Sequence record: PQ400055.1 | Reading direction: 5' to 3' (one strand) | DNA: 64,000 nucleotides | Origin: a phage | Shown: positions 45,467-50,113 of the stretch, one piece after another | How the letters are laid out: the number at the start of each line of letters is the position of its first letter | Numbering within the stretch: position 1 is the stretch's first letter | Made by a program: the position numbers and the translations under genes | Notes under the pieces: model-generated | Told to the model about the DNA's origin: nothing | The model's database searches: none | The model's input: the letters and a program-made list of their open reading frames with translations, nothing else

Positions 45467-45685
45467 TTATTTATATCGCTTTCTCTCGCGACGTTTTTGA
45501 TCTTCTTCCTTGATAGAGTCAAATGCATCAAAAAGGCACATGAGACTGATAATGAACATAACCGTATTTTCTACGATATCCCACGTCTTCGCATCAGTAC
45601 AGATCCCCCAAACGGTAAGAAATGCAAATAGTGCAGAAGAGATCACAAGCATGATACTTGCTAAGATATAAAAAGTCATTTTCAT
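45467..45685 (-). CDS. small membrane protein
   Basis: 72 aa, hydrophobic N-terminus, basic C-terminus. Confidence 0.4.
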   Translation of the reverse strand: MKMTFYILASIMLVISSALFAFLTVWGICTDAKTWDIVENTVMFIISLMCLFDAFDSIKEEDQKRRERKRYK

Positions 45686-45876
45686 GGTTTTACCTCAATT
45701 TTTCGATATTCATCACACATCCACGCAGTAAGCAAGAATCCCAGCACATAAGCAACAAAATACGTTAATGCTTCTTCTGGTTTCGTGCTATGTATCATCA
45801 GTAAACCAGCGAGAAAGGTCTTAACAATTACATTTAAAATAATTAGCCACGCAAATAATTTCATCGTTTGCCCCAT
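45682..45876 (-). CDS. small membrane protein
   Basis: 64 aa hydrophobic. Confidence 0.4.
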   Translation of the reverse strand: MGQTMKLFAWLIILNVIVKTFLAGLLMIHSTKPEEALTYFVAYVLGFLLTAWMCDEYRKIEVKP

Positions 45877-46100
45877 TTCGGTCGAGTCTTTTCAAACTTA
45901 TACATTCCGTAACAATCTCGAATCATCCACGTAACAAGAGCACCAGTCAACACAGACAATACACAGAAGAAGTAAAACGGTCCGGTTGCATTATCAACAT
46001 GAGCAAGCCATGTAAAGAAAACACATGCAAGGAACGTGAAGAACATCATAAAGCACAAGAAAGCAAAATATTTTATACTACTCATAGCGCCACCATACAA
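45861..46100 (-). CDS. small membrane protein
   Basis: 79 aa hydrophobic. Confidence 0.4.
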   Translation of the reverse strand: MYGGAMSSIKYFAFLCFMMFFTFLACVFFTWLAHVDNATGPFYFFCVLSVLTGALVTWMIRDCYGMYKFEKTRPKWGKR

Positions 46101-46188
46101 CAGATCACAAGAAACCCCAACGCAATAAGAATTGCATCAAATTTAGTGAACTCCGGTCCACCTATCAACATCATTCGTTCCTGTTCAT

Positions 46189-46386
46189 TCATAGATCACA
46201 GAGCCATCTGAAAGCACCACATAAAGCGAGCAGAATACTAGGTATAAACGAGACTAAAACAAGACTACAAAAATCATCTAAGGTAACGCCGGAATAACTA
46301 CCTACTGTAACAACACCGATTATCAGACACAGAAAGAAAACAAATGCAACCAGAAACAAAGTATTGCTAAACAGTTTAGTGATCAT
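46189..46386 (-). CDS. small membrane protein
   Basis: Track ORF 46189..46431 trimmed to internal ATG (M16). Confidence 0.35.
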   Translation of the reverse strand: MITKLFSNTLFLVAFVFFLCLIIGVVTVGSYSGVTLDDFCSLVLVSFIPSILLALCGAFRWLCDL

Positions 46387-46579
46387 TAGACACCCCACGA
46401 CGATCAATTTCAAAAACTTTTTTACCATCAACGAAGCATGTCACAACTGCCTCGTTGACTTCCGCAAATTGTTGTGTTACCCACTTAAGGTCAGAGCGAA
46501 ACAATGTTCTATTAATAACAAATGTTTTACCGCTCTTATCCTTACCCATAAATTTTGCTTTAACCATATCCAATTCCAT
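46376..46579 (-). CDS. hypothetical protein
   Basis: 67 aa ORF. Confidence 0.4.
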   Translation of the reverse strand: MELDMVKAKFMGKDKSGKTFVINRTLFRSDLKWVTQQFAEVNEAVVTCFVDGKKVFEIDRRGVSNDH

Positions 46580-46588
46580 ATTATCACC

Positions 46589-46747
46589 TTATTTGCCAAT
46601 CGCTAAACCCAATCCGAAGAGAGCACCCGATGCTACAGTATACCCGAAAGTTTCAAATGCAGTAAAGATATCTAAGCCACCAGCTAACAGAGTTGCAGTA
46701 AACAGAGTACCAGCTACGAACATAAAAGTTTTACCGATGAATTTCAT
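46589..46747 (-). CDS. small membrane peptide (52 aa)
   Basis: Below track cutoff; ATG directly after conserved leader and AAGGAGAATCAAA; glycine-zipper-like hydrophobic sequence. Confidence 0.3.
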   Translation of the reverse strand: MKFIGKTFMFVAGTLFTATLLAGGLDIFTAFETFGYTVASGALFGLGLAIGK

Positions 46748-46778
46748 TTTGATTCTCCTTTCGTTTGTTTGTGGGGGT

Positions 46779-46807
46779 ATCTTACTACCCCCGTTTCATG
46801 TTGTCAA
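46779..46807 (-). promoter_or_regulatory. sigma70-type promoter (TTGACA-17-TAAGAT) in GGGGGTA/TACCCCC palindrome
   Basis: Same architecture as the 38918 and 24976 copies. Confidence 0.45.
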
Positions 46808-46813
46808 CTATTT

Positions 46814-47188
46814 TTAAGAATATTTTACTTCGTCTACAATGTCTTTCATGACATTGATTTCCATTCCGGTCAGAACACGTTGGAACATGTGCTGCACATA
46901 CGCTTTCAGGTATTCATTTGATGGCTTACTATCGAAAGTCTTTTTAGTGTAGTAGTCATCACCGAAAGCTACTGTAATTACATTTTCGTCGTCGCTCCAA
47001 GCGATATAAGCAAATTTGCCGTTATCCCAGAAGCGAGCACTAATTGCTACTTTTGTTGAATCGAATCCTACTTCGCTGTGAGATTCAAGAACTACTTGTG
47101 TGCCAGTTTCTTTATGAATGTAGTAGCGGGATACTAAGTCAAAGTTACGGGTGTAGTGACATTCGAATTTATCTTTAAACATCATCAT
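46814..47188 (-). CDS. hypothetical protein
   Basis: Start at internal ATG (M23) preceded by AGGAGAATCAAA; the track N-terminus covers the promoter/leader. Confidence 0.45.
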   Translation of the reverse strand: MMMFKDKFECHYTRNFDLVSRYYIHKETGTQVVLESHSEVGFDSTKVAISARFWDNGKFAYIAWSDDENVITVAFGDDYYTKKTFDSKPSNEYLKAYVQHMFQRVLTGMEINVMKDIVDEVKYS

Positions 47189-47225
47189 TTTGATTCTCCT
47201 AAGTGTGTTTCGTTTCGATATGTGC

Positions 47226-47254
47226 ATTATGCTATAGTCGTTTATGGTTGTCAA
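47226..47254 (-). promoter_or_regulatory. sigma70-type promoter (TTGACA-17-CATAAT)
   Basis: Leader GCACATATCGAAACGAAACACACTTAGGAGAATCAAA. Confidence 0.45.
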
Positions 47255-47258
47255 TACC

Positions 47259-47291
47259 TAAAAACAAAAAACCCCGAAAAATTTTCGGGGT
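47259..47291 (-). terminator. rho-independent terminator
   Basis: CCCCGAAAA-t-TTTTCGGGG hairpin plus TTTTTTGTTTTT on the minus strand. Confidence 0.55.
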
Positions 47292-47297
47292 ATAAAA

Positions 47298-47762
47298 TTA
47301 CAGTTTGGTCGTCCACTCCAAGTCTAGATCTTCGACATACTCATGAGATCGGACAATCTCTAAATCGAACTCTAGGTCAGTGCCAAATTTACGCGCACCA
47401 ACATCATAAGAAAGCGTGATATGCGGTACATATTCAGGATAATCCCACGTCGCGCCTAAAGCAGTTCCGATATCGTGTCTGAATTGCATGTAGTCGCTTT
47501 CAAATGCCAGCACAAGTGCATTAGTACCGGATTGAGTTTCAAACACTTTCAGATGACACAGAGAGCCTAAGAACTTTTCCCCTTCTTCTGGGATAAACGG
47601 AACATATACACGAGAATATAAGATAGTGCTATGCAGTTTATCACGAGGAACGGCATTAGGCAGATCGTAGAACTCCTGCAATTTTTCAATGCGGTCTAGT
47701 GTATCCTCAGTGAATTTAACCGCCGCATATGTACCTTTAACGGATTCTCTAAACGGGGTCAT
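47298..47762 (-). CDS. 2H phosphoesterase (LigT-like), candidate Acb1/57B-type cyclic-nucleotide phosphodiesterase
   Basis: Start at internal ATG (M3); two H-x-T/S motifs (LHSTILYS and PHITLSYD); lies immediately beside the 57A-like gene as T4 57B does. Confidence 0.55.
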   Translation of the reverse strand: MTPFRESVKGTYAAVKFTEDTLDRIEKLQEFYDLPNAVPRDKLHSTILYSRVYVPFIPEEGEKFLGSLCHLKVFETQSGTNALVLAFESDYMQFRHDIGTALGATWDYPEYVPHITLSYDVGARKFGTDLEFDLEIVRSHEYVEDLDLEWTTKL

Positions 47763-47764
47763 AA

Positions 47765-48043
47765 TCAAGCCTCCGTGATCAGTTCTACTTCCTCTTCTGC
47801 TTCTTCTGCGGCTTCTTCTGCGGCTTCGTCTTTAGGGAGAAGTGCTTTCACTTCTTCGACGATAGCATCAAGGGAAACAGTGCCGTTTTCGTCTGGCTGA
47901 ATACCCAGAATGCGTACCAGTTCCATCAATACACGCTCACGATCTTTCAGTTGGCCTTCTAAGAATGCGGCCTTTTCTTGAGTGTCAAACAGACGCACTT
48001 TCAGGACATTAATCATTTGTTCATGCTGATTGGACATATTCAC
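47765..48043 (-). CDS. 57A: tail fibre assembly chaperone gp57A-like
   Basis: 92 aa, coiled-coil N-terminus and acidic C-terminus (EAAEEAEEEVEL); position between the 57B-like gene and gene 1. Confidence 0.55.
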   Translation of the reverse strand: MNMSNQHEQMINVLKVRLFDTQEKAAFLEGQLKDRERVLMELVRILGIQPDENGTVSLDAIVEEVKALLPKDEAAEEAAEEAEEEVELITEA

Positions 48044-48069
48044 ATCTCCTACTTGTTGATAACTTTTTA

Positions 48070-48726
48070 TTAAATGTTCGCGAGAATCTCGCTTTCAAAT
48101 TCTTCTAATGTGCCATTATTTATGATAACTGTTTCACCGTCAATAGGCAAAATTCCTTTTTCGGTGGAGTGAGTCGATACAATACCAGTATCACGCTGAA
48201 TATGCAACACCTTAGCACCCATAGCACGCATAAGAGCAATTTCAATAGGCTGACGCACATCAACCACTACAAAATACCCTTCTTCATTTTTTCGCTTCAT
48301 AAACTCATTCACGAAGAGATTACACCAATAAAGCGGATTGATCAAGTTAACCATTATATCAGTACCGAGAGTGGTTAACATGAGACGAATAGACCAGACG
48401 TTATTATGTTTTTCGCCAATCTCATTAACGACCTTGTAAATCTCAGCCAGACGATCACAAGTAAAGGAACTACCGCCATACTTCGAATCTAGCATAAGCA
48501 GACACTGAATAAACCACTTATGCGCGGTATAGGTATCAATACCTAGATCGGCTTCTCTGTCACGCCCTAACCCGTCAAAGTCAAGATAAGTCAGACCTAA
48601 GTCTGGTTGACATTCGCACAATATTTCTTTGATCGGTGCTGCCAGTTGATAACTATGTCCATCAATGATTAACGCGGCAGTGTCTTTTCCTACTCGCTTT
48701 TTACCACAAAGTGCAATCAATTTCAT
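48070..48726 (-). CDS. 1: deoxynucleoside monophosphate kinase gp1
   Basis: 218 aa; P-loop CGKKRVGKDT; ...GTDIMVNLINPLYW... resembles T4 gp1. Confidence 0.8.
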   Translation of the reverse strand: MKLIALCGKKRVGKDTAALIIDGHSYQLAAPIKEILCECQPDLGLTYLDFDGLGRDREADLGIDTYTAHKWFIQCLLMLDSKYGGSSFTCDRLAEIYKVVNEIGEKHNNVWSIRLMLTTLGTDIMVNLINPLYWCNLFVNEFMKRKNEEGYFVVVDVRQPIEIALMRAMGAKVLHIQRDTGIVSTHSTEKGILPIDGETVIINNGTLEEFESEILANI

Positions 48727-48741
48727 TATATAAGCCTCTTA

Positions 48742-49332
48742 TTACTTTCTAAAAGCAGGGTGCATAGCTTTAATACCTTCCACCCTCTGACGATCCGCCG
48801 CCTGAATTGCTGGGCGAGGAACGATCAGTTGACCATCACGTTCAATGCTCATTGTTTTAAAGGGAAGAATTGCAGTACACACCAGAGATTCATGCATATC
48901 ATCGGTGTATGTTAACTCAAGTTCCCCCAATTGTGAACACCAACAACCATAAAAGTTAAAAGTGCACACAATGTTACGTCGTTCGTTGTCCATCATGTGA
49001 ACTTGAACGGCTTCCGGCATTGAATCCTTCCACGATGTGGAGTTACCGTTATTGTAGTCTACTATAGAAAGCATCCATGTGTAAAGGTTTAGATAGCTTT
49101 CCAAATGCTCATCAACGATAAACCGGACTACCAACGGGTCAAACTCCACATGACTAGACGGATAATCAGCGACCGCCAAACCATATTGACCAGCAACTTG
49201 CTTAGTCGGTGGAATGGTTATAGCCGGAAGTGTAACACCTTGACAGTTTAAAGTAAAGCCTTTTGTTAGTTGACCATCTGGAATGGCAATCTGCCAGTTG
49301 CTAGGGTTAGCATAGTTAAAGAGATTGGACAT
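48742..49332 (-). CDS. 3: tail completion/sheath stabiliser gp3-like
   Basis: 196 aa ORF in the gene 3 position between 1 and 2; assignment by synteny and size. Confidence 0.5.
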   Translation of the reverse strand: MSNLFNYANPSNWQIAIPDGQLTKGFTLNCQGVTLPAITIPPTKQVAGQYGLAVADYPSSHVEFDPLVVRFIVDEHLESYLNLYTWMLSIVDYNNGNSTSWKDSMPEAVQVHMMDNERRNIVCTFNFYGCWCSQLGELELTYTDDMHESLVCTAILPFKTMSIERDGQLIVPRPAIQAADRQRVEGIKAMHPAFRK

Positions 49333-49362
49333 TACGATTCCTTAAATGAAAATATTTATCAA

Positions 49363-49896
49363 CTAAAAATTTAAACTAGCATAATCTCCAAAATGTTCCT
49401 TTGCTGCTTCGTCATAAGCCTTTGCAGCATCAACTTCGTCAAGAAAGACGCCCAAATGGACCTTTCTACGATTGATTGATATCTGAGCACACCATTTGTT
49501 ATTCTGTGTTCTAATCACTCCTTTATACTTACTCTTACAACCATCAAGTTTTCCGCGATTGAACGCATTTTCCTGAGAAGTGGATTCTCTCAAGTTATCC
49601 GGTGCATTATTTTCTCGGTTTCTATCTACATGGTCGATCATTTTAACTTGCGTACCATGTTCAAGATACCAAACAACCCTATGAACTTTAATGACCAAAG
49701 AATAGCCATCACTGCGCCAAAACTTAAAACATAGATAACCTCGACTATTTTTATAAACTTTAACCGGGTCTCCTGCCTTATACCATCGACCATTCTTTCC
49801 ACTATCTTTCAAATGATACAATATACCATTAACGTGTTTATACTTATCTCTAATTTCTTTTTGTGTAAAATCATCCCACATCTTAAAACCAGACAT
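49363..49896 (-). CDS. HNH homing endonuclease with AP2 DNA-binding domain
   Basis: 177 aa; HNH core IDHVDRNRENNAPDNLRESTSQENAFN; C-terminal AP2-like KYKGVIRTQNNKWCAQISINRRKVHLGVFLDEVDAAKAYDEAA. Confidence 0.75.
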   Translation of the reverse strand: MSGFKMWDDFTQKEIRDKYKHVNGILYHLKDSGKNGRWYKAGDPVKVYKNSRGYLCFKFWRSDGYSLVIKVHRVVWYLEHGTQVKMIDHVDRNRENNAPDNLRESTSQENAFNRGKLDGCKSKYKGVIRTQNNKWCAQISINRRKVHLGVFLDEVDAAKAYDEAAKEHFGDYASLNF

Positions 49897-49929
49897 ACAT
49901 TTTCTCCTGATATTATTAATAACAACATC

Positions 49930-49958
49930 AATCTAACACATCCAGTATATAATGTCAA
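49930..49958 (-). promoter_or_regulatory. possible sigma70 promoter for the HNH gene (TTGACA-17-TAGATT)
   Basis: Good -35, weak -10; adjacent short hairpins GTCGC-aaa-GCGAC and GTGCC-tac-GGCAC. Confidence 0.25.
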
Positions 49959-50113
49959 TTGTCGCTTTGCGACGTGCCGTAGGCACTGACTACTTTTTAA
50001 CCGAAACAAATTTTTATTATTCTAAAGATCTTTCTTCGTTTTGGTTATGTTTTAACCAATAACTATATTTTTATACAGTAATAAATAAAACTGGTACTAT
50101 ACGAGGACTTCTT

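Follow-up and report, generated by a model that had tools for sequence, protein, structure and literature searches.

The closest described relatives of the gene reported here are the Acb1 nucleases of phages T4 and FBB1. Both 3'3'-cGAMP and cAAA are substrates of T4 Acb1 and of all nine further homologues assayed, and a T4 mutant deleted of acb1 shows a plating defect of more than 300-fold on CBASS hosts (PMC9117128). The reaction is metal-independent and takes place in two steps, the cut being made 3' of adenosine via a cyclic phosphate intermediate; 3'3'-cGAMP, cUA, cAAA and cAAG are cleaved, whereas cGG, cA4 and 3'2'-cGAMP are not (PMC9117128). The active site of the T4 enzyme is an HxT/HxT tetrad (H44, T46, H113 and T115), the nucleobases are stacked by Y12, W74, F107 and W147, and E141 contacts the adenine N6 (PMC9117128); therefore, Acb1 needs an adenosine in its substrate. 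A lid formed by the C-terminal residues 145-152 shuts over the ligand and is required for catalysis (PMC9117128; 10.1101/2025.08.21.671373), being disordered when no ligand is bound (PMC9117128). Through the translated 152-aa T4 gene (NP_049750), we confirmed that the residue numbers of PMC9117128 follow T4 numbering. In addition, a crystal structure of FBB1 Acb1 contains hydrolysed 3'3'-cGAMP in its active site, and the RB49-type phage vB_EcoM-G2494 was among the phages of the infected-lysate screen (PMC9117128, Supplementary Table 1).

Few viral 2H phosphodiesterases are as promiscuous as T4 Acb1, and its cleavage of 2'3'-c-di-AMP triggers the Panoptes decoy system (10.1101/2025.08.21.671373). 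Selectivity varies inside structural group 3, as seen for T4 Acb1 and PDE-9 on 2'3'-c-di-AMP, with specificity set by the enzyme core; 2H PDE-9 of Burkholderia phage BCSR5 degrades 3'3'-cGAMP and cleaves 2'3'-c-di-AMP poorly (10.1101/2025.08.21.671373). In the literature searched, we found no paper naming Acb1 together with RB49 or Krischvirus, nor an assay of the RB49-type protein.

Here we analyse the gene at 47298..47762 in a 64,000-nucleotide stretch of phage DNA from record PQ400055.1, hereafter the window. The gene is very probably the 57B of a Krischvirus, an Acb1-family 2H phosphodiesterase that, by analogy with its assayed relatives, would degrade CBASS signals.

The 57B gene and its source phage

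The coding sequence occupies 47298..47762 of the minus strand, inside an open reading frame spanning 47298..47768 in the ORF list, and translation from the ATG at 47762 yields 154 aa followed by a TAA stop. The earlier note had placed the gene at exactly these coordinates, with the strand, which is minus, left unstated. A Shine-Dalgarno GGAGG (CACGGAGGCTTGATTATGACC; 47770..47774, minus strand) is located 7 nt 5' of the ATG, within the end of the upstream gene 57A, whose TGA stop (47767..47765) lies 2 nt ahead of the 57B ATG. This proximity of stop and start codons suggests that the translation of 57A and 57B is coupled.

Among the records that match the 1.95 kb around 57B, the 25 listed come from Escherichia and Shigella phages, including RB49, JSE, Phi1, GEC-3S and W115, and share 97.3-98.7% identity with this region; all 59 matching records fall within 95-99% identity. 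Because of this identity to RB49-type phages, we assign the window to Krischvirus (Straboviridae, RB49-like); as judged from nucleotide identity, then, PQ400055.1 is an RB49-like E. coli phage. The 57B gene was found in 59 of 59 Krischvirus-type records, with nucleotide identities of 96.4-99.8%.

The differences between these copies are almost entirely silent. With respect to the 57B of the window, that of RB49 differs at 10 nucleotides, that of vB_Eco_SAP at 14 and that of Ec_Makalu_001 at 15, all of them synonymous (10, 14 and 15, respectively, with 0 non-synonymous in each), and that of vB_EcoM_G2494 differs at 10, with 9 synonymous and 1 non-synonymous change (D129N). Altogether, 48 synonymous changes against 1 non-synonymous, in four relatives whose shared ancestry makes the comparisons not independent, indicate strong purifying selection on the 57B protein.

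The reading frame of 57B is shifted in two Krischvirus records: the gene of Cognac (MZ504877, 601..1064) is short by 1 nt, with two ORFs annotated in its place, and that of vB_Eco_TB34 (OX001802, 601..1067) has 2 nt more. Either these frameshifts stem from sequencing errors or the two genes are natural acb1 pseudogenes.

Family assignment and database labels

The 57B product matches the Pfam family Acb1 (PF23474) with E=1.5e-51; the score of 174.4 bits lies above the cut-off of 27, and the match covers positions 1-143 of the 144 of the profile; the same family is carried by all the homologues retrieved (64/64). When all PDB sequences were searched with phmmer, the sole protein matched was Acb1 of Erwinia phage FBB1 (7T26/7T27); the match has E=1.8e-43 and spans residues 10-153. 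Since the whole protein matches both Pfam Acb1 and PDB 7T26 at these E-values, a chance pair of HxT motifs in a non-gene can be ruled out; the predominance of synonymous changes led us to reject it as well.

In a four-way MAFFT alignment, the 154-aa protein shares 53% identity with FBB1 Acb1, 48% with T4 gp57B and 100% with RB49 gp57B (NP_891697.1). The value against T4 57B by tblastn is 46.8%, and the alignment to T4 Acb1, being full-length, extends well past the two His motifs. Relatives of 57B were found by tblastn in 1,476 phage records, and the exact protein sequence is present on 316 contigs.

As to its name, the gene is already known: it has been called 57B since the deposition of the RB49 genome, it falls within the Pfam Acb1 family, and the UniRef entry for the exact protein reads 'Anti-CBASS protein Acb1 n=16 Tax=Krischvirus RepID=Q7Y455_BPRB4'. 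The Acb1 finding is not new, therefore, given that an identical protein already bears this name in UniRef. Most GenBank records of 57B read 'hypothetical protein', and 'anti-CBASS protein' appears in UniRef and a few recent records alone.

A different label, 'RNA ligase', is attached to 57B in PHROG 755 and in many RefSeq records, and would make the protein a general LigT-type 2H enzyme, that is, a 2'-5' RNA ligase or RNA 2',3'-cyclic phosphodiesterase devoted to RNA or tRNA repair and no nuclease of cyclic oligonucleotides. Weak Pfam matches to generic 2H families point in the same direction, but with 19.4 bits for 2_5_RNA_ligase2 and 14.1 bits for LigT_PEase they stay below the gathering cut-offs of 27 and 23.3 bits, as compared to 174 bits for Acb1. 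In this regard, a search of NCBIfam and PADLOC with the 57B product returned no matching model, and in particular no NCBIfam RNA-ligase model.

Predicted structure

The AlphaFold2 model of the 57B product built from an alignment of 62 sequences reached a pLDDT of 91.6 and a pTM of 0.84, and is uncertain only at the termini, residues 1-5 and 151-154; it was retained in place of a single-sequence model with a pLDDT of 37.5, which was discarded. At residues 151-154, the end of the lid, the pLDDT falls below 50, a low confidence that fits with a lid being disordered in the unliganded state.

Foldseek against the PDB gave 7T26 as the best match of the model, with a TM of 0.97 by target length, an rmsd of 0.9 A over 138 columns and 52% identity, followed by 7T27. 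The next best match was the phosphodiesterase of Burkholderia phage BCSR5, with a TM of about 0.7, an rmsd of 3.2-4.1 A and 16-18% identity. E. coli LigT is also found among the matches, which could be taken in favour of an RNA-ligase-type enzyme; however, its chains align with a TM of only 0.46-0.58, an rmsd of 4.5-7.7 A (mostly 6-7 A) and 10-13% identity, as opposed to the close superposition on Acb1, so that the likeness of the predicted model to LigT is at the superfamily level only. On the basis of these TM values (0.97 for 7T26, about 0.5 for LigT), the 57B product is an Acb1 in the narrow sense, beyond mere membership of the 2H superfamily.

Catalytic and ligand-contact residues

The two motifs from which the earlier note had proposed an Acb1-type nuclease, HSTI and HITL, can both be read in the sequence, at residues 44-47 and 114-117. 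The first, H44-S45-T46-I47 (47633..47622, minus strand), aligns with T4 H44/T46, and the second, H114-I115-T116-L117 (47423..47412, minus strand), aligns with T4 H113/T115. All four residues of this tetrad, H44, T46, H114 and T116, are kept without exception (62/62) in an alignment of 62 diverse Acb1 family members that share 31-79% identity with the 57B product.

The residues that contact the ligand are conserved as well. The base-stacking aromatics of the 57B product are Y12, F74, Y108 and W150, the T4 counterparts being Y12, W74, F107 and W147. The column of Y12 holds Y in 61 of the 62 family members, and that of W150 holds W in 47 of 62; position 74 is occupied by F in 41 members and W in 21, and position 108 by F in 42, Y in 15, H in 4 and W in 1. 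E144, the aligned counterpart of T4 E141, is E in 56/62. The C-terminal lid, residues 148-154 (L148-L154; 47301..47321, minus strand), aligns with the T4 and FBB1 lids and includes W150, equivalent to T4 W147. The candidate Acb1-type function put forward by the earlier note is thus supported by a full-length alignment to Acb1 that includes the substrate-binding residues, and by a fold model that superposes on 7T26.

The conservation of the residues stacking cyclic nucleotides and of the lid Trp also argues against a LigT-type RNA repair enzyme, as does the cleavage of cGAMP and cAAA by the T4 orthologue and nine other family members (PMC9117128). We consider such an enzyme a most improbable identity for 57B, and the label 'RNA ligase' is misleading.

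Within the Acb1 family, the 57B product departs from the T4 and FBB1 proteins in a two-residue insertion, E131-F132, and in W106, where those have H/Y; on account of these differences, its kinetics or substrate range could differ. In this regard, one could think of a true Acb1-family enzyme with shifted substrates, for instance one that spares 2'3'-c-di-AMP and so avoids Panoptes, or that acts mainly on the cA3 of type III CRISPR, with a role partly unlike that of T4 Acb1. Such a shift would be in agreement with the differences in selectivity known within structural group 3 (10.1101/2025.08.21.671373), and with F74 and Y108, both unlike T4, together with W106 and the insertion at 131-132. Nevertheless, F74 and Y108 are also the residues of FBB1 Acb1, an enzyme with hydrolysed 3'3'-cGAMP in its crystal structure, F is the majority residue of the family at position 74, and nine of nine extra homologues cleaved both cGAMP and cAAA (PMC9117128). 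No particular shift is indicated by the present evidence, and we regard a shifted range as very unlikely. The reading that we retain is that of an Acb1 that would act on the substrates of its assayed relatives.

Gene block and transcription signals

In the window, 57B closes a tightly packed block of minus-strand genes in the order 3-1-57A-57B, common to the window, RB49 and T4. The block is headed by gene 3 (48742..49332), followed by gene 1 (48070..48726), encoding a dNMP kinase (Pfam DNMK, E=2.9e-68) and placed as in RB49 and T4, and by 57A (47765..48037), encoding the tail-fibre assembly chaperone and lying directly 5' of 57B. The 57A product matches Pfam GP57 with E=2.7e-6 and 27.5 bits, against a cut-off of 27, and PHROG 1002, 'tail fiber chaperone', with E=1.2e-25; it shares 98% identity with RB49 57A and 43% with T4 gp57A. 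Because these Pfam, PHROG and T4 matches make the 5' neighbour a gp57A homologue, the adjacency of 57A and 57B is real, and the T4-like arrangement anticipated by the earlier note is borne out, with the whole T4 order of the block kept. A position at the end of 3-1-57A-57B is typical of the Straboviridae members of Acb1, and it does not define the family.

The 3' end of 57A (47780..47830, minus strand) encodes a Glu/Ala-rich, acidic tail of gp57A that is 4 residues (12 nt) longer than that of RB49, reading …DEAAEEAAEEAEEEVE… in the window and …DEAAEDAKEEVE… in RB49. This difference in length suggests a variation in the copy number of a short GCGGCTTCTTCT-type repeat.

At the upstream side of the block, an ORF of 177 aa (49363..49896, minus strand) is found between genes 3 and 2, with an HNH_3 domain (PF13392, E=2.8e-13) and a weak AP2 domain. 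By megablast, the 618-bp stretch that contains HNH_3 is present in only two phage records, AV108 (100%) and phiS (98.9%), and the flanking genes in about 59 Krischvirus records; in RB49, this site is taken by another small ORF, on the plus strand. From its distribution and domains, the ORF looks like a sporadically distributed homing endonuclease.

As in T4, a terminator and a promoter follow the block. The terminator scan detected a strong intrinsic terminator, ACCCCGAAAATTTTTCGGGGT followed by a T-run (47261..47291, stem 47291..47271, minus strand), beginning 7 nt past the 57B stop and annotated likewise in the G2494 and Makalu_001 records. The promoter scan detected a sigma-70-type promoter, TTGACA-17-CATAAT (11/12; 47226..47254, minus strand), which lies ahead of the next gene and delimits the 57B transcription unit at its end. 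The equivalent site of T4 holds a stem-loop and then the early promoter PE2 ahead of ipI. From 46500 to 50000, the minus strand was found to contain neither a T4-type late promoter (TATAAATA) nor a MotA box, save for one TGCTTTA within 57B, and the promoter of the block was not located. We propose that 57B is probably co-transcribed with 57A and translationally coupled to it within the 3-1-57A-57B block, and that the transcript would end at the adjacent intrinsic terminator.

Neighbouring genes

Directly downstream of acb1 lies a gene for a protein of 125 aa (46814..47191, minus strand) that matches phrog_15253 (E=1.1e-86) and, below threshold, the Pfam family of T4 Gp30.7 (E=0.0037), and is preceded by the strong promoter described above. 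From its place, where T4 has the anti-restriction gene ipI, it may be considered an anti-defence candidate. About 0.7 kb downstream of acb1, the minus-strand gene at 46376..46579 encodes Dmd (Pfam PF17587, E=7.8e-15), an antitoxin against the RnlA/LsoA toxins; in the T4 stretch examined, ipI comes directly after 57B and dmd is absent. The Krischvirus genes for Acb1 and Dmd may belong together in a small anti-defence cluster.

A run of small, packed or overlapping minus-strand ORFs of 36-80 aa, mostly strongly hydrophobic, extends over 45467..46747, with 45467..45685, 45682..45876, 45861..46100, 46189..46431 and 46589..46747 as examples. A Pfam search of five ORFs from this run gave no match, and the RB49 annotation lists their equivalents as hypothetical proteins.

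No homologue of T4 Vs.4 (Acb2, a cyclic-nucleotide sponge) or of IpI was found by tblastn in the 64-kb window (best E about 2-4). The RB49 annotation of this region lists vs, vs.1, vs.6 and vs.8, with no vs.4. If Acb2 were missing from the rest of the genome too, Acb1 may be the sole anti-CBASS factor of the phage.

Proposed mechanism and implications

The findings presented here allow a model for Krischvirus Acb1, whose catalytic activity, substrate range and anti-CBASS effect in vivo we infer by analogy with the T4 and FBB1 enzymes. A U-shaped pocket would take cyclic di- or trinucleotides with at least one adenosine, namely 3'3'-cGAMP, cUA, cAA, cAAA and cAAG. Y12, F74, Y108 and W150 would stack on the bases and E144 would read the adenine N6, with the C-terminal lid closing over the ligand. 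H44, T46, H114 and T116 would then catalyse, with no need for a metal, an attack by the 2'-OH on the 3'-5' bond located 3' of adenosine. A 2',3'-cyclic phosphate would form as the intermediate, and the product would be linear, with a 3'-phosphate. As a consequence of the proposed degradation of their cyclic-nucleotide signals, CBASS effectors would stay inactive, and the phage would escape abortive infection.

In practical terms, RB49-type coliphages, several of which are under study for phage therapy, have a conserved, selected gene for a predicted anti-CBASS nuclease, and its presence is relevant when predicting which E. coli hosts with CBASS or Panoptes they can infect. The Panoptes liability of T4 Acb1 probably applies to Krischvirus Acb1 too. 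Conceptually, the present findings do not go beyond the knowledge gained with T4 and FBB1. One could think of a functional difference from T4 Acb1, either through shifted substrates (W106/F74/Y108 and E131-F132) that would change the set of CBASS types defeated or whether Panoptes is tripped, or because the protein, were Acb2 missing from the rest of the genome too, would be the sole anti-CBASS factor and clustered with Dmd; this seems unlikely to us.

Comparison with known systems

With its T4 counterpart (gp57B, NP_049750.1), Krischvirus Acb1 shares the location at the end of the 3-1-57A-57B block, with a stem-loop and a promoter after it, as well as the catalytic tetrad, Y12, the lid Trp and the adenine-contacting Glu, at 47-48% identity over the full length. 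Both proteins differ, however, in the stacking residues, W74/F107 in T4 and F74/Y108 in Krischvirus, and their alignment has two indels, one of a single residue near position 81 and one of two residues at 131-132. The loci differ as well: 57A overlaps 57B in T4, whereas a 2-nt gap separates them in the window, and the next downstream gene is ipI in T4 and that of the 125-aa protein here, with Dmd about 0.7 kb off.

FBB1 Acb1, available as the apo enzyme (PDB 7T26) and with 3'3'-cGAMP (7T27), resembles the Krischvirus protein in having F74 and Y108, at 53% identity, although it belongs to another phage lineage with another host (Erwinia). In addition, the Krischvirus protein has the E131-F132 insertion and 9 extra N-terminal residues with respect to the crystallised construct.

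The remaining comparisons are more distant. The 2H phosphodiesterase of Burkholderia phage BCSR5 ('2H PDE-9', PDB 9Q2G/9Q2Y) belongs to the same structural group of 2H phosphodiesterases, but its lid is N-terminal, in contrast to the C-terminal lid of Acb1, and the identity is 16-18%. E. coli LigT and the 2'-5' RNA ligase family (PF02834, PF13563; PDB 5LDI and others) have in common with Acb1 the 2H superfamily fold and two HxT/S motifs; unlike Acb1, however, LigT is larger (about 170 aa), is devoid of the C-terminal Trp lid and acts on RNA ends instead of cyclic oligonucleotides.
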